Under the pieces are notes generated by a model, which worked only from the letters and a program-made list of their open reading frames with translations, made no database searches and was not told the origin of the DNA. Below are positions 43,582 to 64,000 of a stretch of 64,000 nucleotides of DNA, in pieces. A program made the translations under genes and the position numbers. Numbering within the stretch: the first letter of the stretch is position 1; each line of letters opens with the position of its first letter. The stretch is from a virus: the IMG/VR virus record IMGVR_UViG_3300030202_003733, positions 96,001 to 160,000 of that record; one strand, written 5' to 3'.

Positions 43582-43593
43582 TTTATTTCTCCT

Positions 43594-44565
43594 TTACCAT
43601 CTAAAACGAATTTTGCAATCATTAACAATTTTATCAATTTCTTGATCAAATATTTTTTTAGGCTTCCAGCCTAAATCTCTAAGTTTTTTATCATCTATTG
43701 AATACCTGACGTCTTGCCCTTTCCTGATGTAAGAGAAATCCAGAAGATCTAAGTATTCGCTATATTCTTCCTCGTGGTTGCCGTTGAAAAATGAATTTAT
43801 TATTTTTCTTGTTGTGTCTATATTTTTTTGTTCAAAGCCGCCCGCTACATTAAATATTTCGTTTACGACACCAGATTCAATTATTTTAATTACAGCTTGT
43901 GCTGTGTCTTCCACATGAAGCCAATTCCTATAAGGTTCGCCATGATCGTGTAACCTAATTTTTCTCCCCCTTTGAAGCTGTTTAACAACAAGAGGAATAA
44001 GTTTTTCTGGGTATTGGCCCACGCCGTAGTTATTTGTCGGTCGCAGGATTACATAGTCTAAGCCATAAGTTCTTGCCCAGGCATTTATCAACATGTCAGC
44101 AGAAGCTTTAGAGGCCGAGTAGGGGTTGCTAGGTAGCAGAGAAGCGCTTTCATCATGCGAGCCTTCCTCAATGTCCCCATAAACCTCATCGGTACTAAAA
44201 TGAAATAAGACCGGTTTCTTGGTAACATTTTTTGGTTTATGTTTTAAAATATCCAGTAGGTTTTTTACGCCGACGATATTACTCTTAATAAAGTCACTAC
44301 TGTCTATAATACTGTTACCAACATGTGTCTCCGCAGCAACGTTAATTATATAATCGCAATCAGGTATGTGTTTTATATCGGCTATATCTGCGTTTAGAAA
44401 AGTAAAATTGTAAGTATTGGGCATACGCTCCAGGAACGACATATAATTGCAAGCAGCGTATGTCTTACTGTCTATACCATAAACCTTCCACCCTTTTTTT
44501 AAACAAGCCTTGGTGACCTCAGAGCCGATAAAACCAAGACAACCAGTTACAACTACAAGCTTCAT
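43594..44565 (-). CDS. rfbB: dTDP-glucose 4,6-dehydratase
   Basis: VTGCLGFIGS, AAETHV, HFSTDEVYG, YSASKAS, NNYG..QYPEKLIP. Confidence 0.9.
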   Translation of the reverse strand: MKLVVVTGCLGFIGSEVTKACLKKGWKVYGIDSKTYAACNYMSFLERMPNTYNFTFLNADIADIKHIPDCDYIINVAAETHVGNSIIDSSDFIKSNIVGVKNLLDILKHKPKNVTKKPVLFHFSTDEVYGDIEEGSHDESASLLPSNPYSASKASADMLINAWARTYGLDYVILRPTNNYGVGQYPEKLIPLVVKQLQRGRKIRLHDHGEPYRNWLHVEDTAQAVIKIIESGVVNEIFNVAGGFEQKNIDTTRKIINSFFNGNHEEEYSEYLDLLDFSYIRKGQDVRYSIDDKKLRDLGWKPKKIFDQEIDKIVNDCKIRFRW

Positions 44566-45917
44566 TTTTTAAACTCCTCAAAAAAATTATCTACTGTTGT
44601 TTTGATGTAATTGATCTTTTCATCCGTAAGCCCCAAATATGTACCAAGAAACACTGAGCCCTTTGTGGCTAGGTCTGCATTGGGGAATTTAGATTTTAGA
44701 TCACTGTAATTAGAGGCAAAAGATTTATAAGCCGGATGATAGAGAGCATTACCTGTAAAATAGGCTCTTGTTTGGATCTTATTTGCCTCCATATAGTTAA
44801 CAAATTCTTGCCTACTAAATGGGGCCGTAGGCTTTACAATTAATAAAAACCCAAACCAACAGGGGTCTGATTTTTCGGTTGCCTCTGGCAGCAAGAAATA
44901 ATCATTATATTTTTTGAATATGTTATATATCTTTTCAAAATTATCTCTGCGAGCTTGTTCCATCCTGGGAAGTTTTTTAAGTTGGGTCAGGCCTAGCGCT
45001 GCTTGCATATCTATGGGCTTGAGATTGTATCCAACTTCATCAAACACATACCTATGGTCATAAGTTATCTCTTGACATCCCGGTAGCCAGTTCTTGAATC
45101 TGTCGCCACATGCAGTGCCTCCAGTTACGTCCCCTGGCTTTTTAACATTACAATAACAAGCGCGACCCCAATCTCTAAAACTAGCTAGGGACATTTTTAG
45201 TCTAGCCTTATCAGTTGCCACAAAACCACCTTCACCCATTGTCATATGGTGGGCAGGATAAAAAGAGCACGTTGACATGACTCCGAAGGAGCCTAGTTTT
45301 TTACCATCGTAAAACGAACCCAACGCATCACATGCATCTTCAAGAAATATCAGATCATATTTGTCTACAATAGCCATTAATCGATCCATATCCGGCGGAT
45401 TACCCAAAACATGAGCGAACATGATCGCCTTAATTTCTTTATTTTTATCGTTAGATAAGACTTCCTCAACCGCGTTTAGATCGATATTTAAGCTAGGCAT
45501 TTCGACATCCACAAATACCGGTACCAAGTTGTTTTGTATTATTGGGTTGATAGTTGTAGGGAAACACACAACGGGTGTAATAACCTTGTCGCCATCTTTT
45601 AGGCGGTATTTCTCCGGAGTTTTGTTTTCCGATTTTAAACATGAGACCATTAATAAGTTAGCAGAACTGCCAGAGTTAGTTAAAATTCCCTGCCTCTTAC
45701 CAAGGTATCTCGGAAATAAAAATTCAAATTCAGCCGCATTCTTACCAAACACAAGCCATTCACTTAGTAAGGACTCTATAGCTCTTTGATATTCTTCGGC
45801 ATCATAGCTTGGACCAGAGTATTTGACCCAGTCACCAGGAGACCATGTATCCCCAAGCCTTTTGTCATCGATATACTCGCCGACCAAGTCTAATATCTGT
45901 TTTAATTTACCTTCCAT
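44562..45917 (-). CDS. rfbH: CDP-6-deoxy-D-xylo-4-hexulose 3-dehydrase (E1, RfbH/DdhC)
   Basis: TNSGSSANL; SFYPAHHMTMGEGG with His at the position of the DegT Schiff-base Lys; RDWGRACYC...C Fe-S Cys cluster; YDHRYVF. Confidence 0.88.
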   Translation of the reverse strand: MEGKLKQILDLVGEYIDDKRLGDTWSPGDWVKYSGPSYDAEEYQRAIESLLSEWLVFGKNAAEFEFLFPRYLGKRQGILTNSGSSANLLMVSCLKSENKTPEKYRLKDGDKVITPVVCFPTTINPIIQNNLVPVFVDVEMPSLNIDLNAVEEVLSNDKNKEIKAIMFAHVLGNPPDMDRLMAIVDKYDLIFLEDACDALGSFYDGKKLGSFGVMSTCSFYPAHHMTMGEGGFVATDKARLKMSLASFRDWGRACYCNVKKPGDVTGGTACGDRFKNWLPGCQEITYDHRYVFDEVGYNLKPIDMQAALGLTQLKKLPRMEQARRDNFEKIYNIFKKYNDYFLLPEATEKSDPCWFGFLLIVKPTAPFSRQEFVNYMEANKIQTRAYFTGNALYHPAYKSFASNYSDLKSKFPNADLATKGSVFLGTYLGLTDEKINYIKTTVDNFFEEFKK

Positions 45918-46308
45918 CTTGGGTTCCTTTTAATACACTAGTTGTAGAATATCCGACTAATCTTTTAAAATATAACTTATTATCAACTAAATGGCCACCA
46001 ATTATTTTTTTATTTTTCCAATCATCCCCAACAACCATCACCTGGGGTTTTGCTAGCTCTATCTGGGCTTCCAGCTCATTATCTGTACCAAAGCACACAA
46101 CCTCATCGATATATTTTATAGACTGCAAAAGAAATATTCTGTCTTCCAGTTTATTCACAGGCCTGGAGTCCCCTTTACTTTTAGATACTCTATCGTCCTC
46201 GTCTACTCCAACCACTAGATAGTCCCCTTGTGATTTCGCATATTTAAATAACTCAATATGACCCCTATGAAGAACGTCGAAGCAACCGTTTACCCATACT
46301 TTTTTCAT
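45907..46308 (-). CDS. HldE/RfaE domain II-like sugar-1-phosphate nucleotidyltransferase (start revised to 46308)
   Basis: GCFDVLHRGH (HxGH), KGDSRPVN, C-terminal GYSTT; ATGA overlap. Confidence 0.85.
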   Translation of the reverse strand: MKKVWVNGCFDVLHRGHIELFKYAKSQGDYLVVGVDEDDRVSKSKGDSRPVNKLEDRIFLLQSIKYIDEVVCFGTDNELEAQIELAKPQVMVVGDDWKNKKIIGGHLVDNKLYFKRLVGYSTTSVLKGTQDGR

Positions 46309-47039
46309 AGAGTACTGACTCCTCTCTTTTGGACTACCACTGTAGCGCAATTGTTGGCATGTTCAATCGCTTGTTCTATATTACCTTTCTCTAAGAACTT
46401 TACAACCAAGCCAGAGATAAACGTATCACCAGCCCCAGAAGAGTCTTTCATTTCTACACTCTTAACCGGATAAGTCGTACCTTTAAATAAACACCCACCC
46501 TCGCCAAGAGTTATAATAAGTTTTTCCATCATTTCGTCGCTAACTGTATGCCTTGTTTTATTTAATTCATAAATATTTATTTTTATATACAAAGCATTCT
46601 TGCACCAATCTCCAAGTGTTTTCTTTGTATCCAAAAAGACGCATTTGTGTGAATCACATATTTTTTTAATTACCTCTTCGGATATAAAACCCTTGTTGTA
46701 GTCTGATATAATTACTGCGTCATAGTCGTTTATGTTTCTTAGTCCATAAGTGTCTATTTTGGTATACCCGTCGCCCTCAAAATCAACTCTAATAAACATT
46801 TGATTTCTCTTCTCGTCAACGTATCTAACTTTTTCAATCAACTCCCATTTAGAATTTGTTATGATATCACAATCTACAGACATTGAACTAATATTATTAT
46901 GCACATTCATTGCCATTCCACCATTTTCAGTTTTGTGCGTAGGATTAAACACTGGGACTGGTGCCTCCGGACACAGCCTGTGGCACGAACCATAGTGAAA
47001 AACGTCTTTGCAACTTTCCCCTATAACCAATACTCTCAT
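46305..47039 (-). CDS. HldE/RfaE domain I-like sugar kinase (PfkB family)
   Basis: RLCPEAPVPV, GGMAMNV, SDYNKG, DSSGAGDTF. Confidence 0.85.
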   Translation of the reverse strand: MRVLVIGESCKDVFHYGSCHRLCPEAPVPVFNPTHKTENGGMAMNVHNNISSMSVDCDIITNSKWELIEKVRYVDEKRNQMFIRVDFEGDGYTKIDTYGLRNINDYDAVIISDYNKGFISEEVIKKICDSHKCVFLDTKKTLGDWCKNALYIKINIYELNKTRHTVSDEMMEKLIITLGEGGCLFKGTTYPVKSVEMKDSSGAGDTFISGLVVKFLEKGNIEQAIEHANNCATVVVQKRGVSTL

Positions 47040-47040
47040 T

Positions 47041-48201
47041 TTAACCCCTTATCAAATCGCATATAAAATCTATTTCGTGAGCCTCCAACTCAGGATAGTT
47101 TGGAACAAAAAAACCACAAGAATGTATTTTATTACTCATCTCGTCATCAAATCTTCCATATCTCTCCACCCAAAAAGGGTGTAATCCAAGGTTACCAGCA
47201 CTAAAAATTCTTGTTTCAACGCCATTTTCTACAAGACGAGATACAATTTCTTTTCTGTGTTCAATATTGTCAGCGATAGCGCCAAAAGATATGGAAACGG
47301 GGTTGTTGTCTCCCCAGTCCTGGAAACTCACCACGCCAGAAAGGTTTTCCGCGTATCTTTTATGGTTCCTATTCCTAAGAGCTTTAATCTCCTCTGCGCG
47401 GTCAATCTGCCTAAGTCCTAGAAAAGCCTGTAGATCCGTGGACCTCAGATTGAAACCAGGCACAAAAAATGTGAATGGCTTATGAAAATCATCAACATTG
47501 TTTTTTTCTATGAGATGATCATAAGATTCTTGATCCAAATCCTTGCCCCAACCGTGACTTCGCAGCATTAAAAGCATATCATATAATTCTTTATCGTTCG
47601 TGTTTACCATGCCACCCTCGATAGTTGACAACTGGTGACCGAAATAGAATGAAAATGATGACATATCTCCGATTGTACCAACCATAGAGCCATCAGAGTA
47701 CGAAGCGCCAAGAGCAGCACACGCATCCTCTAGTAGACAAAAGCCATACTTTTCTTTTAATTCAAGCATTCTTTTTTTATAATGAGGAACTCCAAGAACT
47801 TGAACAAAAATAACAGCGTCAGGTTTTTCTTTCTTGCAAACCTCTTCCAATTGATCTAAATCAATACCGTATGTTTTAGGATCCGCGCCGACCATGATTG
47901 GAGTTAACCCTAGTTGGATAGCTGGGGATATTGTGGTCACCCAGCCAACTGATGGGACGACAATTTTCTTGTTTTCTATCCTCCCCGACATCATAGCAGT
48001 GGCCACCATAAGCAAGTTAGCAGAGGAGCCAGAATTGTTAAAAACAGCGTGTTTTGTGCCAATAAATTCAGCCCATTTGTCCTCTACATCCCAGGTGAGA
48101 TTTCCCTTTGTGAGCCTGGGGTATGTCTTTAACCAGTCACAAAGCGCGTTAATATCTTCATCATTAATTGTTTCTTTAGCTAATGGATATTTAATATTCA
48201 T
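47041..48201 (-). CDS. DegT-fold PLP enzyme, ColD-like NDP-4-keto-6-deoxysugar 3-dehydratase
   Basis: NSGSSANLL, LEDACAALG, SFYFGHQLSTIEGG (His replaces the aminotransferase Lys), MLRSHGW, GFNLRSTD. Confidence 0.75.
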   Translation of the reverse strand: MNIKYPLAKETINDEDINALCDWLKTYPRLTKGNLTWDVEDKWAEFIGTKHAVFNNSGSSANLLMVATAMMSGRIENKKIVVPSVGWVTTISPAIQLGLTPIMVGADPKTYGIDLDQLEEVCKKEKPDAVIFVQVLGVPHYKKRMLELKEKYGFCLLEDACAALGASYSDGSMVGTIGDMSSFSFYFGHQLSTIEGGMVNTNDKELYDMLLMLRSHGWGKDLDQESYDHLIEKNNVDDFHKPFTFFVPGFNLRSTDLQAFLGLRQIDRAEEIKALRNRNHKRYAENLSGVVSFQDWGDNNPVSISFGAIADNIEHRKEIVSRLVENGVETRIFSAGNLGLHPFWVERYGRFDDEMSNKIHSCGFFVPNYPELEAHEIDFICDLIRG

Positions 48202-48737
48202 AGTCTAACCTCCTTTAATTTAATTCCATGTTTATCTCTGTCCGACAATATTGGTGATTTTATAGCCCAATCCACGCCAAGATCGGGGTCATCCCACGCA
48301 ACTGTCACTTGATTTTCCGGGCCGTTATATTCCTTTGACCATTTATAGTAAAATACGCACTTATCTGATAGACATAAATGTGCATTCACACACCCGGCTG
48401 GGACTACTACGACCGTAGGCTCGTTGTCCGAAACCAGATAAGTTTGTACATTCCCATATGTCTCTGAGCCTTTTCTCGTGTCCGCGACTGCAAACTGAAA
48501 CTGCCCGCTCAAACACGAGACCAATTTTGCCGTGTAGGGATCGCCGTGGAACCCTCTAAGAACTCCGAATCTTGAGATAGTAATTTTATCGGCAACAAAC
48601 TTATGGTCGCAAAATTCATCTTCTCTTTCAGAATATAATGTCCATATTTCACCCCTAAAGTCTTGAAATGTATCTAAGGTTATCTTGCATAAACCATTTA
48701 TTTTGTCAGAGTGATCATATCTTTTAATAACATTCAT
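48198..48737 (-). CDS. rfbC: dTDP-4-dehydrorhamnose 3,5-epimerase family
   Basis: FQDFRG, GVLRGFHG, KLVSCLSG, VPAGCVNAH, WDDPDLGVDW. Confidence 0.85.
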   Translation of the reverse strand: MNVIKRYDHSDKINGLCKITLDTFQDFRGEIWTLYSEREDEFCDHKFVADKITISRFGVLRGFHGDPYTAKLVSCLSGQFQFAVADTRKGSETYGNVQTYLVSDNEPTVVVVPAGCVNAHLCLSDKCVFYYKWSKEYNGPENQVTVAWDDPDLGVDWAIKSPILSDRDKHGIKLKEVRL

Positions 48738-49711
48738 CCTAGCTCCTTACAAAATTCAACAACCTTGCCGCATATATCATCAGAGGATAATCCATTATTA
48801 TCAATATGGTGGTCCCTATTGCCATTTTCAAAAATATATCTTTCCGGGAGTCCGATTCTAAGAACATCTTTCTTTAAACCAGCATCTGACAGGGCCTCTA
48901 GGACCGAAGAGCCGAATCCGCCAGATAATGTTTGTTCTTCTACTGTGACAATAACGTCATATTCTTTCACCGTATTGTGGAACAATTTAGTATTTATAGG
49001 CTTTATTCTCCACATATCCACAACAGATACCTCATAACCCCCAAAACTTAAAGCCTTCTGCGCCTCGCACACCCTGCCTAGCATATAACCACTAGACAGA
49101 ATACATATTTTAAGTTTATCAGGGTTTCTTGGCTCGGAAAGTCCGGGTTTGGCGATCCGAATACCAGTTTTTATAGCGTGGCTCCCAGAAAGCCAAGAGG
49201 GGTAGGCTGACTCCATAACCTCGGCGTGTTTCCTCTCAAGTCTTATGTACCTAAGTTTTGGTTCTTCGCACGTTAAATTAACCAGATCTTTGACCATGGT
49301 GTTGTTGCTAGGAGAATATATCTCTATACCGCACAAGGATTTCATATATGCCATGTCCTCGTTGGGACAATGTGCAGGGCCTGCTGGCGAGTATCCGAGG
49401 GCGACACCATTTCCCAAGATTGTAATAGGATTATCAGCCATAGCACAAGAATATCTAATTTGCTCAAAGCATCTGGCTACCCAGCAGGCCATGAAATATA
49501 CATAGGCCTTTTTACCATTAGCTGCCAGACCGGCTGCAAAGTTTATGGCGTTCTGTTCCGAAATGCCAGCGGCGAAAAATTGCTCCGGTAAATCGCTTCT
49601 CCAGCGGTCCAAGGATGGAGCACCCATATCAACTGATATTAGACAAATATCTTTATCCAATTTCGCTCGTTCAAAAAGGTTAGAAATAAATGTATCTCTT
49701 TGTGACATCAT
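48734..49711 (-). CDS. Transketolase, C-terminal (pyrimidine-binding) subunit
   Basis: AGISEQNAINFAAGLA, GPAHCPNED, YIRL, VTVEEQTLSGGFGSSVLE. Confidence 0.9.
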   Translation of the reverse strand: MMSQRDTFISNLFERAKLDKDICLISVDMGAPSLDRWRSDLPEQFFAAGISEQNAINFAAGLAANGKKAYVYFMACWVARCFEQIRYSCAMADNPITILGNGVALGYSPAGPAHCPNEDMAYMKSLCGIEIYSPSNNTMVKDLVNLTCEEPKLRYIRLERKHAEVMESAYPSWLSGSHAIKTGIRIAKPGLSEPRNPDKLKICILSSGYMLGRVCEAQKALSFGGYEVSVVDMWRIKPINTKLFHNTVKEYDVIVTVEEQTLSGGFGSSVLEALSDAGLKKDVLRIGLPERYIFENGNRDHHIDNNGLSSDDICGKVVEFCKELG

Positions 49712-50469
49712 GATAGCTCCTCCAATCCCTTTTTAAGCAGTTCTTCCTCTTTAGGGATTATAGTGTGATATTGCCACACACCTTCCATATAGCTTACTCC
49801 CTTACCTTTAATAGTGTCTGCTATGGTAACGGTGGGCTTGTCGCTAATTTTAAGGGTGTTGGCCAGATCATCAAAATCATGGCCGTTCACCACCCTGGTC
49901 TCAAAGCCAAAACTCTCAAACTTGTCTTTAAGGGGCTCTAGACCAAGCAATTCTTCAGTTTCTCCCAAGATTCCCATTTTATTTCTATCGATTATCAAGT
50001 GGATATTATTAATATTGTGATGAGCAATAAACATAAGACTTTCCCAAACAGATCCTTCGTATAACTCCGCGTCACCTAACAAAACATAAACGTTTTTATC
50101 GTTACCGTATGCTAAGCCCGCAGCATATCCTATTCCGTTTCCAAGTGAACCACCAACAAAACTACATCCGGGGATCGATTGGTCAGCGTGCAGCCTAAGA
50201 ATGCCCTCTGGGGTGCAATATTTTTCTAGTTCTTCCGCTTCGACAAAACCCAGATCAACCAATATCGGGTATACAGCAGGCGAGCCATGCCCCTTGCTAT
50301 AGATAACAACATCTTTGTTGGGGTCAAAATCAGTTTTTTTATCAAAATAAAGCGAAACTAATATATCCACACACGAAAGGCAGCTAGCTAGATGCCCTGC
50401 TCCCGACCTAGTTTTAAACTCAAAAACTCTTCTTCTCACTGATTTTGCTATTGTTTCTAGTTCGCTCAT
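49708..50469 (-). CDS. Transketolase, N-terminal (TPP-binding) subunit
   Basis: GHLASCLS, YSKGHG, GSLGNGIG, LGDAELYEGSVWE...DRN TPP motif, TIKGKGVSYME. Confidence 0.9.
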   Translation of the reverse strand: MSELETIAKSVRRRVFEFKTRSGAGHLASCLSCVDILVSLYFDKKTDFDPNKDVVIYSKGHGSPAVYPILVDLGFVEAEELEKYCTPEGILRLHADQSIPGCSFVGGSLGNGIGYAAGLAYGNDKNVYVLLGDAELYEGSVWESLMFIAHHNINNIHLIIDRNKMGILGETEELLGLEPLKDKFESFGFETRVVNGHDFDDLANTLKISDKPTVTIADTIKGKGVSYMEGVWQYHTIIPKEEELLKKGLEELS

Positions 50470-52013: not shown

Positions 52014-52024
52014 AATAAAACTCC

Positions 52025-57215: not shown

Positions 57216-57918
57216 TTTGTTTACTCACATATGCCAGCAACATAACTTCGTTCGAAAATCTAATAAATTTATTAATTGAGTTAGGTAACCAAGATCTCTT
57301 AAAAGGTCTAAACGGAATAGGAAAAATAGATATAATCTTTGGTATAATTTTTAGTATAGAATTCCTCCAGACAAAAGGCAATTGATAAAAATATTCTACT
57401 TTTACATCTTGAAATCCTGACATTTTCAGGGCCTCTTCTAACGAGTGTCTGGTGAAGGGTGTGACGTGCGTGTGGTCTATGTAAAACGGCCCCCAATAGC
57501 TATGCTCCCAACTTGGTGTCATTATTACAGCTTTACCTCCGGGCAATAAAACTCTGTGTGCCTCACTCATAAGATTCAAGGGGTTGTTCATATGTTCTAT
57601 GACAGATTTACTAAAAACAAAATTTATTGACCCATCCTTAAAAGGTAGTTTATCAATTTCCAAATCAGCCTTGTGTATTTCATAATCACTATCAGCAGGG
57701 CTAATATCTACGCCCATGGCTTCAAATCCTAAATTAGAAAAAACGTTTAAAAATTCACCATCGCCACAGCCAATATCTAAAATTTCTAAACCTAAACCCT
57801 TGGGTCCAAAAAAGTTTTTAGTTAAAAACACACCAAGTTTGCTTGGATAATCAGAGTCTCTTTTTCCGTAAGTGAACTCAAGGTATTTCTTATCTTTTAG
57901 AATATCTTTAGATGCCAT
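57208..57918 (-). CDS. Class I SAM-dependent methyltransferase (start revised to 57918)
   Basis: ILDIGCGDG, GVDIS, FVFSKSVIEH, RVLLPGG, DHTHVTPF. Confidence 0.85.
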   Translation of the reverse strand: MASKDILKDKKYLEFTYGKRDSDYPSKLGVFLTKNFFGPKGLGLEILDIGCGDGEFLNVFSNLGFEAMGVDISPADSDYEIHKADLEIDKLPFKDGSINFVFSKSVIEHMNNPLNLMSEAHRVLLPGGKAVIMTPSWEHSYWGPFYIDHTHVTPFTRHSLEEALKMSGFQDVKVEYFYQLPFVWRNSILKIIPKIISIFPIPFRPFKRSWLPNSINKFIRFSNEVMLLAYVSKQND

Positions 57919-59170
57919 CGTTCTCTTGCTCCAGACATGTTTTAACAACAAGTGCAGATTCAACAATCGCATCCTTTGAAATTGTAAGCGGGGGCCCAAA
58001 TTTGATTGAGTTTCTACCAGTATACACAGGTAGAACGCCGTTTTGAATACATCTCTTGGCTACATTTGTTGCTGTCTCTGTGTCATGAAAAATAACGCCC
58101 GCAACCATCCCACGACAATTTACATCAGCAACAAGTGGTGACTCTAGTAGTTCTTCAAAATAACTTTCAAATACAGGTATTTTGTCTTGTAAATCTTTTT
58201 GAAATTTGTCGCTTGTTAAAAAATTAATATTTGCCAATGAAGCGGCAGAACACAATGCATTTCCAGCATGTGTTCCCCCAACAACTGCTTTTTTATCAAC
58301 ATCTATAATCTCTTTGGTTCCCAGTAAGGCAGACATGGGTAATGAGGAAGATATCCCCTTGGCCAAACATATAAGGTCTGGCTTTATGTCGCTTGTGTAG
58401 GACATGTATCCGTATAGAGTACCCATCCTATAAAAACCAGCCTGTATTTCATCAAAACAAATCAATATACCGTGTTCTTTGGCAAAATCATAAAGGTCAC
58501 GAATATATTGGTCCGGGTACATTAAAGCTCCCCAACCTTGGTATGTTTCAAGAAAAAAAGCAGCTATATCTTTAGGGTCTGGCAGAGCCGTGGGGTCGAA
58601 AACACAGTTTTTAGTCGGAAAGTCTATAAATTTGATACTTTCATCCTTAAAACCACACCACTCAGTTGTGGTTTCATCACCACAAAGTAAATCAGACCCA
58701 AGTGTCCTGCCATGATAGCTACCCCTGAATGATATTGTATATTTTCTATCATTCTTCGCGGCCCAAAATTTAATTAATTTTATTGCTATGTCTGTTACTT
58801 CTGAACCAGAGTTTAACAAAACTGCCTTTTCAAAGTGATCAGGCGATATTTCCAACAATCTATCAATAAAATCTGCCTTAGCTTGGTTGTTATAAAGGAA
58901 GGAAAACCACATATCCTTGTTAAGTTGTTGTTGAATAGCACTTTTGATCTCTGGGTTTGCATGTCCAGCGTTAGCCACAAATATCCCCGCTGTCATATCG
59001 ATGTATTTATTACCGTAAGTGTCCCAGACACTAAAATCTTTAGCTCTTTCCCAATCTATAAGCTGCTGGCTCAGCGCTACTGACTCCCGGTCGCTTTTCT
59101 TTTTTGATAGCGTAGTTGGCGCAAACATCACCTTGCTAAGTATGTCTCTATTATTTGTCTTTATCATCAA
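57908..59170 (-). CDS. Class III PLP-dependent aminotransferase
   Basis: YIDMTAGIFVANAGH, NSGSEV, YHGRT, ICFDEIQAGFYRMG, CLAKGISS, GGTHAGN. Confidence 0.88.
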   Translation of the reverse strand: MMIKTNNRDILSKVMFAPTTLSKKKSDRESVALSQQLIDWERAKDFSVWDTYGNKYIDMTAGIFVANAGHANPEIKSAIQQQLNKDMWFSFLYNNQAKADFIDRLLEISPDHFEKAVLLNSGSEVTDIAIKLIKFWAAKNDRKYTISFRGSYHGRTLGSDLLCGDETTTEWCGFKDESIKFIDFPTKNCVFDPTALPDPKDIAAFFLETYQGWGALMYPDQYIRDLYDFAKEHGILICFDEIQAGFYRMGTLYGYMSYTSDIKPDLICLAKGISSSLPMSALLGTKEIIDVDKKAVVGGTHAGNALCSAASLANINFLTSDKFQKDLQDKIPVFESYFEELLESPLVADVNCRGMVAGVIFHDTETATNVAKRCIQNGVLPVYTGRNSIKFGPPLTISKDAIVESALVVKTCLEQENDGI

Positions 59171-59952
59171 GTAATCCCCCTCGACATCCAGTCTGACATG
59201 TCGCTAGTTTTTAGTAAATACCTCAGAACATCAGGTGGAGACCCGCTTCTCATCATTGCTTGTATTGTATCTAATTGGTAACCGGTGTCTATTTCCAATG
59301 TATAATCAGTTACTAAAGGAAATACTTTACTACCAAATGCCTGTCCGTGAGCGGACAAAGTTTCTGGTTTTACTAAATCGATGTAGCCATTCGGCTGATA
59401 TGCTTTTGGGAAGACTTGTCGAGGAAGATTTGTGTAATTTTTATTCCCGTTAAAATCCTCAAAAAATCCCTTAAAGTATTTTTGTCCTAATTTTAAACAC
59501 TTGTACGGGGACTCTGGAAGCTCGTGTGCAGACCTAGCTGCCGTAGACTCGGCGTACTCAGCGCTGTTTTGATATAAATCTATGTAATCATCTATTTTTT
59601 TTGGATCTCTAATCGGTGTGGTGGGCCTAATAAAGGCTATACACTCTTCCTCCCCTCCCCCTTCATAGTAGCCCTGCTTTGTCAAAAAATGATTAATAAC
59701 ATCAAAATCGGTGGATGTGTCGGTTGCATATCTTGCGGGTCTCATAAATGGAACTTCAGCACCATATTTTATTGCTTCCCTTGCTATTTCATCACTATCC
59801 GTAGATACAACTATCCTATCTATTCTTTTTGACATTTTACAGGCAGCTATGGAATACGCTATTAGCGGAAACCCTACCACCTTTGCGATATTCTTTCTAG
59901 GGACGCCCTTGCTGCCGCCCCGTGCAGGAATAAGGGCTGTTATTCCGGCCAC
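59167..59952 (-). CDS. neuA: Acylneuraminate (nonulosonate) cytidylyltransferase
   Basis: LIPARGGSKGVPRKNI, VSTDSDEI, RPTTP, PRQ...YQPNG, EIDT. Confidence 0.9.
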   Translation of the reverse strand: MAGITALIPARGGSKGVPRKNIAKVVGFPLIAYSIAACKMSKRIDRIVVSTDSDEIAREAIKYGAEVPFMRPARYATDTSTDFDVINHFLTKQGYYEGGGEEECIAFIRPTTPIRDPKKIDDYIDLYQNSAEYAESTAARSAHELPESPYKCLKLGQKYFKGFFEDFNGNKNYTNLPRQVFPKAYQPNGYIDLVKPETLSAHGQAFGSKVFPLVTDYTLEIDTGYQLDTIQAMMRSGSPPDVLRYLLKTSDMSDWMSRGIT

Positions 59953-60779
59953 TGATGATTCCTAAGTTTATCTCTGACCGGAACTTCCGACTCTTGCACA
60001 GTCTTTGTGGGGCTGCCAAGGGACAGTTCTACTGTCCTAATATCTTTAACCAGTCTCGTTAGATCATCTAATTCAATAGACGCAGGCTGGTCCGAGCCAT
60101 ACATGGTTTTATCAAGTGTAATGTGCCTCTCGATACAGGTAGCGCCCATGGCGGCTGCCGAGACGGATACAATACGGCCAGTCTCATGGCCACTATAACC
60201 AGCGGCACACTTAAATACATCCCTAAGCGTCCACATAGCCCTTAAGTTAGCGGCCTCATTCTTCATAGGATAAGTGCTATTACAATGCATTAATGTAAAT
60301 GGACAATCGTGATGATTAAATGTGTTTACAACACGCTCAATTTCTTCCATAGTGCTCATGCCTGTGGAAATAAATGTGTGCCTGCCTTCCCTAGCAATTT
60401 CCTCAACCAGTTCCTTATATGTTAGAAGCGCCGAAGCGATCTTGTTGTGTTTCAGATTGTACTGCTTTAAAAAGTCTTGACTTTTTAAATCCCAAGCAGA
60501 GGCAAACCAATCGATTCCCACCGCTTTACAATACCGATCAATTTCATCATATTCTTGCTTTCCAAATTCGAGCCCAAGTTTTTGCTCTCTATTGGTTGTC
60601 CCCCAGGGGCTTTCTCTCGGTCTGTCCAAATCAGCTTTCGTATAGACTTTTTCTACACACCTCTTTTGAAATTTAACAGCGTCACAGCCTGCTCTGACCG
60701 CACCATCAATCATCTTCTTAGCGATGTCTAAATCGCCATTATGGTTAATACCAATTTCTGCTATAATATAAACACTCAT
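59940..60779 (-). CDS. neuB: N-acetylneuraminate (nonulosonate) synthase family, lacking the C-terminal SAF/AFP domain
   Basis: IIAEIGINHNGD, DAVKFQK, KIAS, ISTGMS, MHCNSTYP, GYSGHE, IERHITLD..MYGSDQ.AS; only 279 aa. Confidence 0.9.
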   Translation of the reverse strand: MSVYIIAEIGINHNGDLDIAKKMIDGAVRAGCDAVKFQKRCVEKVYTKADLDRPRESPWGTTNREQKLGLEFGKQEYDEIDRYCKAVGIDWFASAWDLKSQDFLKQYNLKHNKIASALLTYKELVEEIAREGRHTFISTGMSTMEEIERVVNTFNHHDCPFTLMHCNSTYPMKNEAANLRAMWTLRDVFKCAAGYSGHETGRIVSVSAAAMGATCIERHITLDKTMYGSDQPASIELDDLTRLVKDIRTVELSLGSPTKTVQESEVPVRDKLRNHQWPE

Positions 60780-60794
60780 AATAACTCCTAATGT

Positions 60795-60823
60795 ATACTA
60801 ACTCTTAACAACAATAATGTCAA
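60795..60823 (-). promoter_or_regulatory. sigma70-type promoter for the neuB-neuA module
   Basis: TTGACA (60823-60818, overlapping the upstream TGA stop), a 17 nt spacer, TAGTAT (60800-60795), then AGGAG and the ATG at 60779. Confidence 0.7.
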
Positions 60824-61749
60824 GGCAATTCTCCTTTTACAAAAACATCGTGCCAAGAGCTTCTGTCTAAATTGATAATTTCAATATCAAGCTTCTCGGC
60901 ACTCTCCTTTATAATTTTCATATCGTCTAATATAAAATCCCTAAAAACGTGCTTCCAGTGGCCAACGTTTGGAAAATTTATTGGTAAATTAGCGTCTGTA
61001 TTTGCATAACCAACACTATAATCAAGGTCCATTCCGGTAATATATATTGGGTTACAACCCATATGTATTGCTAACATAATAGCAAACATACCCACTGTTT
61101 GACCTGGGCCTGCGTGTTTGTTGTGCCCTGATATCTCCTGTAGGTGTTCTTGAAGGGTTTTATTTATAAAATGATCACAACAATCACCGTGTGACCTCCA
61201 AGCGGGAGCTATGTGGCCATGCACTTGGGCAACCACGGGGTGTACTCCGTGTGTATTTGGTCGGCTCCACATTTGTGGATTGTTACCATAATCTCTATAG
61301 TCTAAATTTTTGTGGTTATCATAATGATGTTTAAAATTTTTAAGTATCTGTGAGCACTTGTGTTTCTTAAAATGTTTTGTATCGTAAGGCAAATAATCAC
61401 ATTTTAAATGTTTTTCTATAAAATCAAATTTCGTCAAGTCCGCTGTTGCGTTGTACAGCAGGGGAACATTGTATTTATTAAATACGTTCTTTGGATACCC
61501 ACGAGAGTTCCATATATGATTTTCTGTAATTGAATTTTTAATTGTAAATTCGCCGTTAGAAACAACCCAGTAATCAGGTTTTTCAGTAAAAAAACTGTAC
61601 CACTCGTTCACAGAAAATCTTAATAACTTTTCTTCTCTTTGTAGTTTTTCTATACGGTCCTTAGAAAAATTTAAACTAGGGCCATGACAAGCCACGACAC
61701 ATGGTTTGTCCTTATGAGAATTACGAATTGTATCAAGTTCTATTTTCAT
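60820..61749 (-). CDS. DUF115/Maf- or CstII(GT42)-like putative CMP-nonulosonate transferase
   Basis: VVACHGPSL...RFSVN...PDYWVVSN...FAIMLAIHMGCNPIYITGMDLDY matches the GxGPSL...N...A..LG...IYL.G.D fold. Confidence 0.7.
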   Translation of the reverse strand: MKIELDTIRNSHKDKPCVVACHGPSLNFSKDRIEKLQREEKLLRFSVNEWYSFFTEKPDYWVVSNGEFTIKNSITENHIWNSRGYPKNVFNKYNVPLLYNATADLTKFDFIEKHLKCDYLPYDTKHFKKHKCSQILKNFKHHYDNHKNLDYRDYGNNPQMWSRPNTHGVHPVVAQVHGHIAPAWRSHGDCCDHFINKTLQEHLQEISGHNKHAGPGQTVGMFAIMLAIHMGCNPIYITGMDLDYSVGYANTDANLPINFPNVGHWKHVFRDFILDDMKIIKESAEKLDIEIINLDRSSWHDVFVKGELP

Positions 61750-62249
61750 ACTTTTAAAATTAAATCCACATACTTAGCTGAAATTTTTTCGCCGGGAACA
61801 GAGAAGCTTCGAACTAAACCAGAGTAGCCCACGTATCCTAATATGGCTTTAGCAGCGTCCTGGACAGATATGAGTTCCATAACTCCGCTAGGTTTGACCG
61901 AGCCTTCAGAGAGGCCTTTTATGACTGATTTGTGTGATATAAAAGTGGGAAGTCTTACGACTATGGACTTTAAAGAATTGGCCAGTAAATATGACTCTGC
62001 TGTGTGCTTATAATATGTATAATATGTTTCTTTTGTGGAACTAGTTGAAACAAATATAATTTTTTTATTTTTATGTTTCTCAACAAACTTCACAAATCTA
62101 TCGTACTCTTTTTTCTGTGAGCTTTCCGCTTTATTTGATACATTCCAAGTATGATAAATATAAACTTCGTCATCACAGGCAATAGAGTCTAAAATTAAAG
62201 CCAGAGAATTCCCTAGCTGACCCCTGCCCCCTACAAGCGTGACACTCAC
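61746..62249 (-). CDS. Short Rossmann-fold NAD-dependent epimerase/reductase-like protein
   Basis: LVGGRGQLG, FVST, YTYYK (YxxxK), VVRLP; much shorter than typical family members. Confidence 0.55.
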   Translation of the reverse strand: MSVTLVGGRGQLGNSLALILDSIACDDEVYIYHTWNVSNKAESSQKKEYDRFVKFVEKHKNKKIIFVSTSSTKETYYTYYKHTAESYLLANSLKSIVVRLPTFISHKSVIKGLSEGSVKPSGVMELISVQDAAKAILGYVGYSGLVRSFSVPGEKISAKYVDLILKV

Positions 62250-62998
62250 AACTCTTCCAGCGGGCTACATCTTTTCATCCCCCTAATTCTTTGTTCCGTT
62301 GCGAGTTGTGTTGCGTGATCTACCTTATCAACATTTAATGGGTTGTCGCGATTATATACATAAAGAACTTTATTTATAAAATGACTTTTATGTCCCGCAA
62401 GTTCAAATAAGGGGTAAGTCCAAGCTAGGTCCCACGCGTACATAAAATGATGTTCTCTGTCGCCGGACTCTACAAAACACTCGTCACTAAGGCTATCCCA
62501 AAGTCCATATTTAAAAGTCTGTAAATGCGAAGTTGTCCATGGTGCTTCTCTAATACAGTTATTATCGATTACATAATCTGGAACTTTTTTAGAAAATTTG
62601 CCAACGATACCAGACGGGTATTCTACATAACTGCCGTAAGTCATCCAACAAGAGTGTTTGATATATTCTTCATTCAATATTTTAAGTGAATCTTTTGTGG
62701 CAAGCCAATCATCACCATGTAGCACAACGACAACATCCTCTTTACTGGGTGCAGTTGTTGAGAGTGCGCTGCGTATGTTCTCAAATGGGTATTTTTTTTC
62801 AGTGTTTTCTATTAAAAGAAATCTATCGTCGCCGTCAATTGTTTTTTTTATAATCTCCACCGATTCATCAGTAGATAAATCGTCAATAAGAATACACTGG
62901 AAATTTTTATAGCTCTGATGTTTAACACTCAATAACGTTTTTCTGATCCATTTATCGACATTATAGAAAGGTATGACCACTTTAAAATGATTAGACAC
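62246..62998 (-). CDS. Glycosyltransferase family 2
   Basis: VVIPFYNVDKWI...ILIDDLSTDES...VLHGDDW. Confidence 0.85.
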   Translation of the reverse strand: MSNHFKVVIPFYNVDKWIRKTLLSVKHQSYKNFQCILIDDLSTDESVEIIKKTIDGDDRFLLIENTEKKYPFENIRSALSTTAPSKEDVVVVLHGDDWLATKDSLKILNEEYIKHSCWMTYGSYVEYPSGIVGKFSKKVPDYVIDNNCIREAPWTTSHLQTFKYGLWDSLSDECFVESGDREHHFMYAWDLAWTYPLFELAGHKSHFINKVLYVYNRDNPLNVDKVDHATQLATEQRIRGMKRCSPLEEL

Positions 62999-63824
62999 CT
63001 AGTGCCTCCAACACCATAATTGGTATTTCGTCTCTTTTGTTTTCCATCAAATCTATCAAAGCCTCGCCCTTGTTGACAAACCAAGATTCGCCTGCGGCTC
63101 CTACTAAACTATTTGTTACTACTTTCATATTCATCATCCTTGCCTCCACAACTATCCTTGAGAGAGTCTCGGGCGTTTTAGGAAAGAAAACTAGTGTTTC
63201 ATTAGCACCAAGCTTTTCTAAAAATTGGTCATGTTCACAGGGCATTATTAATTCGTATTCTATTTTTTTTTCCGTACAATACTGCTTAGAGTGTTCTGTA
63301 CCTTTGTGCAATATATTAGAATACATAATGGAACTGCGACCAGATTTAGTGTTTTTAGACAAAAGACGTAATGTATCTAAAGTTTCTTTCGCCCACAAGT
63401 TGCCGCCAACACTAATAATATTGTTCATTTTTAAATTTTTCTTAACTATATTGGCATGAAAATCCGATTGGCAAAAAACAGCTTTTGCTGTTTTATAAAA
63501 CTCATAATTAATAATCGCTTTGTTCGGAGCCTTAAAATCTTTATAAGCAGCAGGGTTTCTATTGCGTAAATATTTGTGATCATGTTCATAAATAATATAT
63601 TTTTTTCTTTGAATCGCACTTTTGTTTTGTTCAGATAAATTTATAAAGTTAGAAACTATAATAGCATCACTGCTTAAAATATTGTATTCGCTAACCAAGT
63701 GGCTGTTCACACATAAAACTTCATGTCCTTTACTACGCAGTAAATCAATTAGAACTGAGTTGTTCAGTTCTCCGCCACCGTTAACTTGGTCTGCAAAGAA
63801 ATCTGCTATGAAATGAATTTTCAC
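62991..63824 (-). CDS. Glycosyltransferase (GT-B, GT4-like)
   Basis: GGGELNN N-terminus; FFPKTPETLSRIVVEARMMN corresponds to the ExxGxxxxEA donor-binding motif; GTG start. Confidence 0.65.
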   Translation of the reverse strand: MKIHFIADFFADQVNGGGELNNSVLIDLLRSKGHEVLCVNSHLVSEYNILSSDAIIVSNFINLSEQNKSAIQRKKYIIYEHDHKYLRNRNPAAYKDFKAPNKAIINYEFYKTAKAVFCQSDFHANIVKKNLKMNNIISVGGNLWAKETLDTLRLLSKNTKSGRSSIMYSNILHKGTEHSKQYCTEKKIEYELIMPCEHDQFLEKLGANETLVFFPKTPETLSRIVVEARMMNMKVVTNSLVGAAGESWFVNKGEALIDLMENKRDEIPIMVLEALGV

Positions 63825-64000
63825 TCAAATACCTGCTCAGAGTTTTCTAGCTCGGAGAGCCAACTTTCCATTTCAATAAAATCAGGGCCACACATTGAGT
63901 TTGCAAATAATTCATATTGCTTCTCCGGAGCGAATTCGACACAAACGTGTTTATAGAGTTTTTTAGCCATAGACTTATATTTTTTATAGTTATTTCTAAC
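63821..64000 (-). CDS. C-terminal fragment of a probable GT-B glycosyltransferase; runs off the right edge; not in the ORF track
   Basis: Manual translation: VRNNYKKYKSMAKKLYKHVCVEFAPEKQYELFANSM...QVFE*. GTGA overlap with the next gene. Confidence 0.45.
   Translation of the reverse strand, partial: VRNNYKKYKSMAKKLYKHVCVEFAPEKQYELFANSMCGPDFIEMESWLSELENSEQVFE

Follow-up and report, generated by a model that had tools for sequence, protein, structure and literature searches.

A 28-gene glycan biosynthesis island of an uncultured marine T4-like phage, with a lineage-core glycosyltransferase pair that may act on virion proteins

We describe a glycan biosynthesis island in the IMG/VR record IMGVR_UViG_3300030202_003733, a linear phage contig of 183,023 bp. 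The window (i.e., the 64,000-bp stretch that was analysed) corresponds to bases 96001 to 160000 of the contig, with window position 1 at genome position 96001. CheckV estimated the completeness of the contig at 81%, which leaves about 19% of the genome unseen. It is well supported that the island belongs to the phage and that it supplies several activated rare sugars in the cytoplasm, which are joined by five or six soluble glycosyltransferases (GTs). Sequence comparisons and structure predictions further suggest, with a chance that we put at about even, that the acceptors are the phage's own peripheral virion proteins (i.e., fibre and baseplate proteins). A protein acceptor is favoured because a pair of GT4 genes that is core to the lineage (GT4a and GT4b) is predicted to encode a heterodimer and because a tripeptide is in excess in the adjacent fibre proteins. 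A phage-borne acceptor is favoured because this pair, which would be the enzymes touching the acceptor, is conserved across phages of two host phyla.

ORF calling identified 26 tightly packed open reading frames (ORFs) for sugar-nucleotide synthesis and glycosyl transfer at window positions 43594 to 63824. All long ORFs of the window, and both GT4 genes, lie on the minus strand. Whole-contig ORF calls added the two GT4 genes, which reach beyond the window end (genome positions 159821 to 161107 and 161083 to 162330). The island thus extends 2.5 kb past the window and totals 22,737 bp with 28 co-directional ORFs, about one-eighth of the known genome. In the longest-ORF model, 24 of the 28 gene junctions overlap, three have gaps of 0 to 15 nucleotides (nt), and one has a gap of 40 nt. 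The long overlaps are start-codon artefacts, because internal ATG starts that fit domain boundaries remove them. Upstream, the island is bounded by a PD-(D/E)XK nuclease gene, which is followed by PhoH and other phage genes; downstream, it is bounded by a gene for a probable late sigma factor (42087 to 42788) and by baseplate genes. An earlier note, made from the sequence letters alone, had described a phage glycan locus of at least 20 kb and about 25 genes, arranged as a continuous run directly upstream of a sigma factor and virion genes. Size, continuity, and the neighbouring baseplate/fibre block were all confirmed, while the identity of the sigma factor remains weakly supported (phrog_234, E = 2.5e-4; Sigma70_r2, E = 0.025). 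Matching families were also found for each pathway named there (deoxysugar, heptose-like, nonulosonate, and methylation), the heptose-like one through sub-threshold matches only, and the island additionally encodes a split transketolase, a B12-radical-SAM enzyme, and a class-III aminotransferase, which the earlier note had not named.

Of the 26 window ORFs, 23 matched a Pfam family with an E value of ≤0.01, and 22 did so above the curated cut-off. No Pfam family was found for three ORFs (53231 to 53638, 54532 to 54837, and 62991 to 63824), and the ORF at 61746 to 62249 had a sub-threshold match only. The T4 late-promoter motif TATAAATA occurred seven times in the window against 6.0 expected matches and was therefore uninformative about the timing of expression.

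The phage proteins encoded by the contig include a T4-type major capsid protein (MCP), portal protein, prohead protease, sheath and baseplate proteins, and a large terminase, together with a DnaE-type polymerase, helicase, primase, RecA, a gp32-like protein, GroEL, ClpP, and ThyX. Gene families like those of the island are usual in surface-polysaccharide loci of bacteria, and its GC content (0.35 to 0.42) is slightly below that of parts of the structural region. Both features would fit an assembly chimera, in which a fragment of a bacterial O-antigen or capsule cluster was joined to a phage contig, but three observations refute this explanation. First, phage genes on the same strand flank the island on both sides, at distances of only 7 and 12 nt. 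Second, independent contigs span the junction near 43.5 kb, where the earlier note had asked for continuity to be verified. The sequence was found in marine metagenome runs, with no RNA dataset among the runs listed, and Logan contigs of four runs were compared against window positions 40001 to 60000. A 2,511-bp contig of an approximately 95%-identical strain from another sample spans positions 42609 to 45119, crossing the island boundary at 43594, and the contigs of this strain are colinear with the window across 40027 to 59910. Two further runs, possibly the source samples, contain identical contigs across 43242 to 46801 and 43327 to 46801. Third, in 13 IMG/VR viral contigs, the longest of 172 kb, and in two cultured phages, the same island occupies the same place. 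In the approximately 95%-identical strain, an additional stretch of about 995 bp separates the phosphatase-like gene from the cupin gene (at 54835 to 54837), which indicates strain-level variation of the island.

The 13 related IMG/VR loci were retrieved with an alignment of the MptE-like family of the island; four of them had identical hit tables and probably represent one phage recovered four times. Scans of IMG/VR with single proteins (the MptE-like protein P0002 and the C-terminal half of the transketolase) detected no relative. Among the 13 loci, the ulosonic acid synthase gene NeuB was present in 13, the dehydrase gene RfbH and the uncharacterised gene unk277 in 12 each, GT4b in 11 (the other two loci being too short), GT10 in 10, and the uncharacterised gene unk135 in 8. 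The nuclease gene precedes GT4b in all three loci that reach that far, and a sigma-like ORF, 58 to 68% identical to that of the window, closes the island in three of three (L020, L023, and L025). Gene order varies between these boundaries: RfbH and the dehydratase gene adjoin the MptE-like gene in relatives and lie at the far end here. The variable cargo of the relatives includes GDP-mannose dehydratase, GT11, sugar C-methyltransferases, a NUDIX protein, and more radical SAM enzymes.

Among 50,697 phage records, the closest MCPs were those of LR756508 (uncultured, 484 kb; 52.8% identity), Flavobacterium phage vB_FspM_immuto (48.8%), and Microcystis phage Mel-JY01 (48.4%), and Rhodothermus phage RM378 was also among the closest relatives. 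The same records yielded GT4b in only 10 cases, of which 7 are these MCP relatives (immuto in four records, LR756508, Mel-JY01, and RM378). The hosts of the GT4b-bearing MCP relatives span two phyla, Bacteroidota and Cyanobacteria. Both immuto, whose island comprises about 10.8 kb and 13 genes, and Mel-JY01 retain the order nuclease-GT4b-GT4a, followed by other transferases and sugar enzymes. The GT4b homologue of RM378 stands with one following ORF alone among replication genes, with no sugar-synthesis genes adjoining. In LR756508 (302769 to 343521), the nuclease-GT4b head is followed by five ORFs of GT29 (the animal-type sialyltransferase family), two of GT25, two sulfotransferases, and a GT10, and the island also encodes GDP-mannose dehydratase/GDP-fucose-type enzymes, NeuB, a small phosphatase, and a GIY-YIG endonuclease. 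By these comparisons, GT4b and GT4a are a core gene pair of the lineage, and the island follows a pattern of conserved head and variable tail. In Mel-JY01, the annotation splits the GT4b homologue (L027:8998-10489) into two ORFs, and its match likewise falls into two pieces.

Five GTs are recognisable in the island (GT10-like, MptE/CstII-like, GT2, GT4a, and GT4b), and unk277 may be a sixth. GT4a (genome positions 159821 to 161107), of which the window holds the 3' end (63821 to 64000), matched Glycos_transf_1 with an E value of 2e-5 (24.6 bits, under the cut-off of 26.4). GT4b (genome positions 161083 to 162330) matched the same family with an E value of 1.7e-10 and GT4-conflict with 35.5 bits. 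Chlorovirus B736L was the best solved relative of both profiles (E = 6.3e-13 for GT4b and 4.8e-7 for GT4a). A complex of the two proteins was predicted with a median ipSAE of 0.84 over three runs (best control, 0.00), at least 97% contact agreement between runs, and a predicted local distance difference test score (pLDDT) of at least 88 for the partner. Of 157 solved complexes, 116 scored at least this high in ipSAE, as did 2 of 215 mismatched pairs; these counts hold only roughly here, given that the prediction used its own shallow alignments of 8 and 9 rows. GT4b and GT4a are thus predicted to form a heterodimer. The gene unk277 (62991 to 63824) is always the third gene of the island, following GT4a wherever GT4a is within the locus. 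It has relatives with 47 to 54% identity in the 12 loci, and its product had no sequence match in Pfam, NCBIfam, or PDB.

The GT2 enzyme (62246 to 62998; Glycos_transf_2, E = 1e-19) is a soluble protein of 250 amino acids (aa). The GT10-like enzyme (53631 to 54545; Glyco_transf_10, E = 9.7e-12) is of the alpha-1,3-fucosyltransferase type, with FUT9 (8d0o) and Helicobacter pylori FucT (2nzw) as its best solved relatives (E = 8e-8). P0002 (60820 to 61749), a protein of 309 aa, matched MptE-like (PF01973) with 50.1 bits against a cut-off of 34.6, although the match covered only profile positions 119 to 169 of 171. Its structure was modelled with a pLDDT of 91.7. In Foldseek searches with this model, all 15 matches with E values of ≤0.001 were to the CMP-sugar-using enzymes CstII and CstI of Campylobacter jejuni (E = 2e-5; template modelling [TM] scores of 0.41/0.49; 13 to 16% identity). 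The next matches were an archaeal MptE kinase (HPPK; E = 1.0e-3), Maf (5mu5; E = 3.6e-3), and then Pasteurella and animal sialyltransferases; P0002 had no match to the GT42 family in Pfam. A comparison with Maf, the flagellin-modifying transferase, found the MptE-like domain present, a length of 309 aa in place of the multidomain build of about 600 aa, and no flagellin gene in the contig scans. P0002 is therefore best described as a predicted CMP-sugar transferase of the single-domain CstII build and not as a full Maf. Its family has 173 metagenomic members with E values of ≤0.001, and the 120 that were listed are all 250 to 345 aa long. No match was found in the 50,697 phage records, and 185,579 prokaryote genomes (one per species) gave only partial C-terminal matches.

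The candidate acceptors are encoded in a block of 12 ORFs for tail, baseplate, and fibre proteins (8545 to 41174), which includes proteins of 3,244 and 2,202 aa and matches to gp25-like and gp6-like baseplate proteins. We counted the tripeptide [ST][GAS]S in each protein and compared the counts with those of 300 shuffles of its own sequence. The block contained 95 tripeptides against 37 expected (2.6-fold), with 50 against 13.0 in the 3,244-aa protein (z = 11), 17 against 3.5 in a 552-aa protein, 13 against 2.5 in a 492-aa protein, and 9 against 2.1 in a 370-aa protein. Counts elsewhere were 30 against 22 in the head/sheath block, 11 against 10 in the glycan genes, and 42 against 50 in the other 118 ORFs. 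At 47 of 89 sites, the residue preceding the tripeptide was V, Y, L, F, or I. The proteins gp112 to gp101 of immuto showed a similar excess (116 against 42; 2.75-fold), and the baseplate and fibre proteins of T4 showed none (22 against 24). The link between the tripeptide and glycosylation is suggestive, not established. Plain serine/threonine content rose only modestly in the structural proteins (0.17 to 0.21 against 0.13 overall) and was not used as evidence. A 519-aa protein at genome positions 168454 to 170013, with a sub-threshold match to BclA_C (C1q/TNF-like) and internally repeated segments, had been considered as an obvious acceptor, but it has no collagen repeat and was dropped.

These data are compatible with the following scheme. 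The GT4b/GT4a heterodimer would put the first sugar on serine or threonine, possibly at a hydrophobic-[S/T]-[G/A/S]-S tripeptide, and elongation and capping of the chain would fall to the variable enzymes encoded downstream. The particle would thereby acquire a glycan coat that differs between strains, made with no need for a lipid carrier or an export step. In its widest form, the proposal is that autonomous O-glycosylation of proteins is a property of a whole T4-like lineage, made up of Immutovirus, Mel-JY01, RM378, LR756508, and a marine clade that is abundant and uncultured. Such a system would consist of a heterodimeric GT4 initiator with a distant chlorovirus relative, a hydrophobic-[S/T]-[G/A/S]-S sequon on fibre and baseplate proteins, and rapidly exchanging cassettes that build a strain-specific "viral O-antigen," whose caps in the present phage would be a branched 3,6-dideoxy sugar and an amino-ulosonic acid. 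We offer this generalisation tentatively and consider it somewhat doubtful as a whole.

Genes for the export and polymerisation of a lipid-linked glycan were searched for throughout the contig. Across the 183,023 bp, ORFs of at least 50 aa have three hydrophobic 19-residue windows at most, and polytopic membrane proteins were not detected. PF01943 (Polysacc_synt; Wzx) and PF04932 (Wzy_C; Wzy/WaaL) had no match in the contig, with positive controls, and neither did the initiating transferase families PF02397 (Bac_transf; WbaP/PglC) and PF00953 (Glycos_transf_4; WecA), for which 10 and 12 of 14 control genomes were positive. Pfam scans of the 157 contig ORFs, which covered ORFs under about 100 aa in part, revealed no ABC transporter family (Wzm/Wzt). 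Among six related islands, none of 137 ORFs of at least 90 aa has more than one hydrophobic window, nor does any of 50 ORFs in the 40.8-kb stretch around the island of LR756508. One related ORF (L024:16610-17035) matched Polysacc_synt_C with 36.8 bits; it was not counted as a flippase, because its 141-aa product is soluble and cupin-like, without a hydrophobic stretch. Compared with a Wzx/Wzy locus, the island therefore has the clustered sugar-nucleotide and GT genes, and initiating, flippase, and polymerase/ligase genes were not found. The earlier note's claim that Wzx, Wzy, Wzm/Wzt, WaaL, and an initiating transferase are missing from the window was thus borne out over the whole contig, where it had suggested looking, and over seven related islands. 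Since the contig is linear and 81% complete, the unrecovered portion of the genome could still contain export genes.

The earlier note had concluded from this absence that the glycan is assembled on proteins or DNA. Its protein half is favoured here on other grounds, namely the GT4 pair and the tripeptide, and its DNA half is unlikely, but the step from missing genes to the acceptor was unsafe. Soluble or peripheral transferases assemble lipooligosaccharide (LOS)-type glycans directly on lipid A-core, and the host's MsbA/Lpt machinery exports them. Gene absence accordingly does not demonstrate a protein or DNA acceptor, because LOS-type assembly needs none of the missing genes and the host could supply Wzx/Wzy. 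The absence is equally expected if the enzymes remodel the host envelope, that is, if they decorate, on the cytoplasmic side, lipid A-core or undecaprenyl-linked intermediates that the host exports through MsbA/Lpt or Wzx/Wzy. The purpose could be to block superinfection or to keep progeny off infected cells and debris.

Remodelling of the host envelope is also consistent with the nearest characterised relatives, which are LOS or lipopolysaccharide (LPS) enzymes (CstII/CstI, H. pylori FucT, and the Yersinia O-antigen enzyme E1), and with the strong variation in gene content among close relatives (e.g., the additional stretch of about 1 kb in the approximately 95%-identical strain), as expected of a surface under diversifying selection. 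It is the reading given in the papers on P-SSM2-type and pelagimyophage clusters (PMC7824862, PMC7029224, PMC12801897). Three observations argue in the other direction: GT4b/GT4a are common to phages of Bacteroidota and Cyanobacteria, while the outer glycans of these hosts differ; the P0002 family lacks a full-length cellular relative in the species genomes searched; and the tripeptide excess in the fibre proteins would play no part. We consider envelope remodelling rather unlikely.

Several points nevertheless weigh against glycosylation of virion proteins. This phage and immuto are related, so the tripeptide excess may be an inherited property of the fibre folds, and T4 is the single negative control. 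Mel-JY01 has the GT pair, yet its six large ORFs after the tail tube show no excess (7 against 14 expected; 0.49-fold); its only enriched proteins are the sheath (11 against 3.0) and the product of a 376-aa ORF (5 against 0.8). GT4a did not resemble protein O-glycosyltransferases significantly (GtfA/Gtf1, 4pqg, and the 7ec1 chains; E = 0.006 to 0.07). The single-domain build of P0002, which is that of CstII and not that of the full-length flagellin-modifying Maf, weakens the direct argument for protein glycosylation. CstII-like, GT10, GT2, and GT4 enzymes, with GT25 in LR756508, belong to bacterial LOS/LPS enzyme families whose known members use glycolipid or glycan acceptors. The unseen 19% of the genome counts on the same side, as do the published readings of comparable clusters, which invoke remodelling of the host surface (PMC7029224, PMC7824862, PMC12801897).

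The GTs might instead glycosylate modified bases in DNA as a protection against restriction. The GT4-conflict match of GT4b and the position of the island, which in every case follows a PD-(D/E)XK nuclease gene and in RM378 lies among replication genes, would be in line with such a role, and Pyle et al. in 2024 reportedly found that phage transferases put diverse glycans on DNA. We know of no CMP-ulosonic acid or branched dideoxy sugar on DNA, and the contig had no match to PF00303, the ThyA-type hydroxymethylase family (detected in 10 of 14 control genomes), with ThyX present. In immuto, which has the syntenic island, all dG is replaced by formylated 7-deazaguanine, and only dA, dC, dT, and fdPreQ1 were detected by liquid chromatography with UV detection and tandem mass spectrometry (bioRxiv 10.1101/2023.04.13.536721). 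DNA hypermodification is therefore very improbable as the function of the island. Separately, a 422-aa protein of the contig (genome positions 33842 to 35110) matched DUF5591 (27.2 bits; cut-off, 26), a domain known from archaeosine/DpdA-type transglycosylases; no Que genes were seen among the scanned ORFs.

A soluble or secreted glycosylated small molecule, or a modified cofactor, would be another conceivable product. Natural-product sugar pathways commonly use B12-radical-SAM, thiamine diphosphate (ThDP)-dependent, VOC, cupin, TIM-barrel, and class-III aminotransferase enzymes. For a second cyanophage cluster, a role in making a metabolite was suggested by Iyer et al. (PMC7824862). Five or six GTs and a conserved predicted heterodimer exceed the usual need of such pathways, and no polyketide synthase, nonribosomal peptide synthetase, or terpene genes were seen in the contig scans, which makes a small molecule improbable.

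We now turn to the sugars that the island is predicted to supply. The first is a CMP-ulosonic acid formed by NeuB, a small phosphatase, and a CMP-synthetase, tailored by an SDR, the class-III aminotransferase, and a methyltransferase, and moved by the CstII/MptE-like enzyme. The NeuB-family synthase (59940 to 60779) has 279 aa and lacks the SAF domain. It matched NeuB (PF03102; E = 6.2e-71) with 239 bits against a cut-off of 22 and remained under the equivalog cut-offs (TIGR03569, 260 against 400 bits; PseI, 188 against 340 bits). Its best solved relative, 6ncs (E = 2e-38), is also short (290 aa). NeuB relatives occurred in 3 of the 50,697 phage records. The CMP-ulosonic acid synthetase (59167 to 59952) matched CTP_transf_3 (E = 7.8e-19) and, under the cut-off, PseF (E = 2.9e-33). 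No NeuC, Pse, or Leg precursor genes were found in the module. A small HAD-like sugar phosphatase candidate of 101 aa (54532 to 54837) matched the capsule biosynthesis phosphatase family TIGR01689 under the cut-off (E = 2.1e-7). Its counterpart directly follows NeuB in L020 and lies near NeuB in L023, LR756508, and Marine virus AG-345-L05. Because this ORF accompanies NeuB in the present island, in related loci, and in two further phage records, the NeuB substrate may be phosphorylated, as in the ketodeoxynonulosonic acid (KDN) or eukaryotic sialic acid routes. A mannose-6-phosphate isomerase, a family found beside NeuB in L023, was considered for the cupin of the window, which had no such match, and a complete KDN route is thus not shown for this phage.

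The candidate tailoring enzymes of this module are a class-III (ArgD/BioA-like) aminotransferase (57908 to 59170; Aminotran_3, E = 5.3e-69; 52 to 60% identity in 10 of the 13 related loci), an S-adenosylmethionine-dependent methyltransferase (57208 to 57999; Methyltransf_23, E = 3.4e-24), a VOC/glyoxalase-fold enzyme (56781 to 57215; Glyoxalase, E = 1.3e-8), a xylose-isomerase-like TIM-barrel enzyme (56004 to 56780; AP_endonuc_2, E = 5.2e-8), a classical SDR oxidoreductase (55196 to 56134; adh_short_C2, E = 6.5e-40; NF006619, E = 1.8e-48, under the cut-off), and the cupin (54837 to 55202; Cupin_2, E = 2.3e-7; 68 to 84% identity in relatives). The true start of the SDR is probably codon 41, and its sequence is 51% identical to that of an ORF adjoining NeuB in AG-345-L05. 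Together, these six enzymes could turn a hydroxyl group into a methylated amine.

A second predicted sugar is a 3,6-dideoxyhexose, for which the island encodes a 4,6-dehydratase together with an E1-type 3-dehydrase. The NDP-hexose 4,6-dehydratase, which is the last gene of the island (43594 to 44565), matched GDP_Man_Dehyd (E = 3.5e-55), Epimerase (E = 2.3e-52), and, under the cut-off of 365, the NCBIfam dTDP-glucose 4,6-dehydratase model (279 bits); relatives with 56 to 65% identity were present in 12 of the 13 loci. The E1/RfbH-type NDP-4-keto-6-deoxyhexose 3-dehydrase (44562 to 45917), dependent on pyridoxamine 5'-phosphate, is the sole island enzyme above an NCBIfam equivalog cut-off (RfbH, NF011936; 473.6 bits against 423). 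It aligned end to end with Yersinia E1 (3bcx; E = 2.3e-99; residues 6 to 446). The motif YPAHH is shared with the wild-type chain 3bcx, in place of the YPAKH of 3bb8, the H220K mutant of E1, so that a histidine stands at the position of E1 His220, where aminotransferases carry the Schiff-base lysine. The C-x-C motif and a distal cysteine also align, with a six-residue insertion; these presumably include the cysteines that ligate the iron-sulfur cluster of E1. At genome positions 166483 to 167268, 4 kb upstream of the island, there is an FNR-like ORF (FAD_binding_6 and NAD_binding_1, but no ferredoxin domain), and its product could be the reductase partner of the dehydrase (i.e., the E3 role).

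A two-carbon branch would probably be added to the 3,6-dideoxyhexose by a split transketolase-like ThDP enzyme (48734 to 50469), which is encoded by two ORFs (48734 to 49711 and 49708 to 50469), one with Transketolase_C and Transket_pyr and the other with Transketolase_N. Further tailoring could involve a B12-binding radical SAM enzyme (50469 to 52043; Radical_SAM, E = 1.1e-16; B12-binding, E = 6.1e-9), which is a probable C-methylase or rearranging enzyme with similar ORFs in L018, L020, L023, and L025, an SDR-type NDP-sugar epimerase/reductase (52025 to 52954; Epimerase, E = 5.2e-33), an RmlC-like 3,5-epimerase (48198 to 48737; dTDP_sugar_isom, E = 8.5e-37), and a DegT-family sugar aminotransferase (47041 to 48201; DegT_DnrJ_EryC1, E = 1.6e-62). 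In related loci, either split transketolase/E1-like ORFs or an acetolactate-synthase-like ThDP enzyme adjoin RfbH. In L013 and L018, the dehydratase-dehydrase pair adjoins such an acetolactate-synthase-like enzyme, a PanB-like enzyme, and an RmlD-like reductase. The yersiniose route consists of a dehydratase, E1, a ThDP enzyme (YerE), and a reductase (YerF). Because the dehydratase-E1-ThDP-reductase set parallels this route, a branched 3,6-dideoxy sugar is the best reading of the module product, by analogy.

A third predicted sugar is one activated by a short-form PfkB-family sugar(-phosphate) kinase (46305 to 47039; PfkB, E = 3.2e-18) and a HIGH-family sugar-phosphate nucleotidyltransferase of the HldE domain II/TagD-like type (45907 to 46350; CTP_transf_like, E = 3.6e-16). 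The kinase matched TIGR02198 (rfaE domain I) with 126 bits against a cut-off of 345 (model positions 92 to 304 of 315), and the nucleotidyltransferase matched TIGR02199 (rfaE domain II) with 114.7 bits against 181.5. As these sub-threshold NCBIfam matches are its whole basis, the heptose-like assignment is putative. Neither gene was found in any of the 13 related loci.

Large glycan clusters of marine T4-like phages are already in print, and this kind of island is therefore known. The 15 genes of the P-SSM2 cluster include those for cupins, epimerase/dehydratases, PfkB kinases, HIGH nucleotidyltransferases, and members of several GT families (PMC7824862); S-SCSM2R has 22 cell-wall genes, including 13 GTs and KdsA/KdsB (PMC12801897); pelagimyophages have a hypervariable host-recognition cluster in which fibre genes are mixed with LPS genes (PMC7029224); and "Moraphages" have four core transferase orthogroups (PMC12619734). 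The first three papers assume a host-surface role that they did not test (PMC7824862, PMC12801897, PMC7029224). The description of the number of pathways as unusual for a phage in the earlier note was thus overstated in view of the P-SSM2 (PMC7824862) and S-SCSM2R (PMC12801897) clusters, but it holds for the ulosonic acid module, which is rare among phage records. Like the published marine myovirus clusters, the present island is a variable block beside the fibre genes of a T4-like phage and contains NAD-dependent epimerase/dehydratases, cupins, PfkB, a HIGH nucleotidyltransferase, and GTs, without export genes. It differs in its lineage (its MCP being nearest to those of immuto, LR756508, and Mel-JY01), its larger size (28 genes), its lineage-core GT4 pair, the E1 3-dehydrase with ThDP and B12-radical-SAM tailoring, and, in comparison with the KdsA/KdsB of S-SCSM2R, the NeuB/CMP-synthetase/CstII-like module. 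What is new comprises a lineage with a syntenic island anchored by the GT4 pair, the 28-gene size, the NeuB/CMP/CstII-like and E1-ThDP-B12-radical-SAM modules, the predicted heterodimer, and the tripeptide excess. A literature search of articles, supplements excluded, found no paper describing the island of this lineage or a phage NeuB/CstII-like module.

Resemblances to cellular systems are partial. The LOS sialylation locus of C. jejuni (CAZy GT42) shares the order of synthase, CMP-activating enzyme, and single-domain transferase, with CstII/CstI nearest in predicted fold; unlike that locus, the island has no NeuC or precursor genes, its SAF-less NeuB is paired with a small phosphatase, and the similarity of its transferase to CstII/CstI is low (as given above for P0002). 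The Yersinia CDP-3,6-dideoxyhexose/yersiniose pathway (DdhB, E1 [DdhC/RfbH], E3, YerE, and YerF) shares the 4,6-dehydratase, E1 with its active-site histidine, an adjoining ThDP enzyme, and a reductase. The ThDP enzyme of the window is a split transketolase and not of the YerE type, which is found in L013 and L018, and the island has neither a glucose-1-phosphate cytidylyltransferase nor a clear E3. GtfA/GtfB of streptococci is a two-subunit GT4 protein O-glycosyltransferase that acts on serine-rich adhesins. It likewise consists of two adjacent GT-B paralogues, which are predicted to bind each other in the present case; the sequence similarity to GtfA (Gtf1; 4pqg/5e9t) was not significant (E = 0.04 to 0.07), and the resemblance is a lead only.

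Among viruses, chloroviruses and giant viruses use their own sugar-nucleotide pathways and cytoplasmic GTs to decorate capsid or fibril proteins without the host endoplasmic reticulum/Golgi apparatus. B736L of chlorovirus NY-2A (PDB 3oy2), the best solved relative of GT4b and GT4a, has low similarity to them (E = 1e-7 to 1e-13) and comes from a virus with eukaryotic hosts and an unrelated virion. In mycobacteriophages, Freeman et al. in 2023 reportedly found that phage-encoded soluble GTs modify capsid and tail-tube subunits in the cytoplasm. Those phages reportedly have few GTs and use host sugar nucleotides, whereas the present island additionally supplies rare donors of its own.

Since the first cyanophage genomes, it has been a matter of assumption whether the "LPS gene" clusters of marine phages serve the host surface or the phage's own particle. 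The present lineage is suited to a test: its island has a conserved two-protein head, its fibre proteins are identifiable and contain a candidate sequon, and one member, immuto, is in culture and has a known non-glycosidic DNA modification. Glycosylation of the particle, if real, would make the host range, decay, grazing, and adsorption of phages at sea dependent on a layer of glycan that is both hidden and hypervariable. The island would further provide enzymes for rare sugars, such as branched 3,6-dideoxyhexoses and modified ulosonic acids, and a virus-only sialyltransferase-like family.

The remaining island ORFs are small or uncharacterised. The most conserved gene of the island is unk135 (53231 to 53638), which encodes a four-helix protein of 135 aa (model pLDDT, 86.8) with 80 to 85% identity in 8 of the 13 related loci. 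In marine metagenomes, its family forms at least 8,000 clusters at 90% identity (the best 120 being at least 83% identical) and 506 clusters at 50%. No match was found in the 50,697 phage records, Pfam gave nothing significant, the ESM Atlas gave unnamed viral clusters only, and the best Foldseek E value was 1.7. The best structural alignment, with the helical domain of archaeal OST1 (VIA-align Z score, 8.4), falls short of a score that would carry meaning for helical bundles. Longer homologues of unk135 share no partner domain; one carries NUMOD3/HNH homing-endonuclease domains, and one has a weak DUF4254 match. A fusion of GT10 with unk135 was considered and not found. An Mpo1-like (DUF962) protein (52951 to 53361; Mpo1-like, E = 1.4e-27), whose true start is probably the ATG at codon 41, had no homologue in the 13 related loci. 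The gene unk167 (61746 to 62249) encodes a short Rossmann-like protein with an N-terminal glycine-rich stretch in its translation and no family above the cut-off.

Outside the island, a 266-aa ORF at window positions 3165 to 3965 has a phosphodiester glycosidase (NAGPA) domain (E = 5.9e-7) and is a candidate glycan-cleaving enzyme. The MCP (648 aa; genome positions 80576 to 82522) matched Pfam Gp23 in two stretches, and its relatives cover about 54 to 64% of it in two pieces; these two-piece alignments suggest a large inserted domain. ARAGORN detected a phage-encoded transfer-messenger RNA beyond the window (genome positions 167291 to 167641, minus strand) with the tag peptide ANNNNHFELALAA, and five tRNA genes (Leu, Arg, Lys, Ile, and Asn) lie at L005:12281-13835 of the contig. 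A run of 10 N is present at genome positions 47191 to 47200, outside the window.

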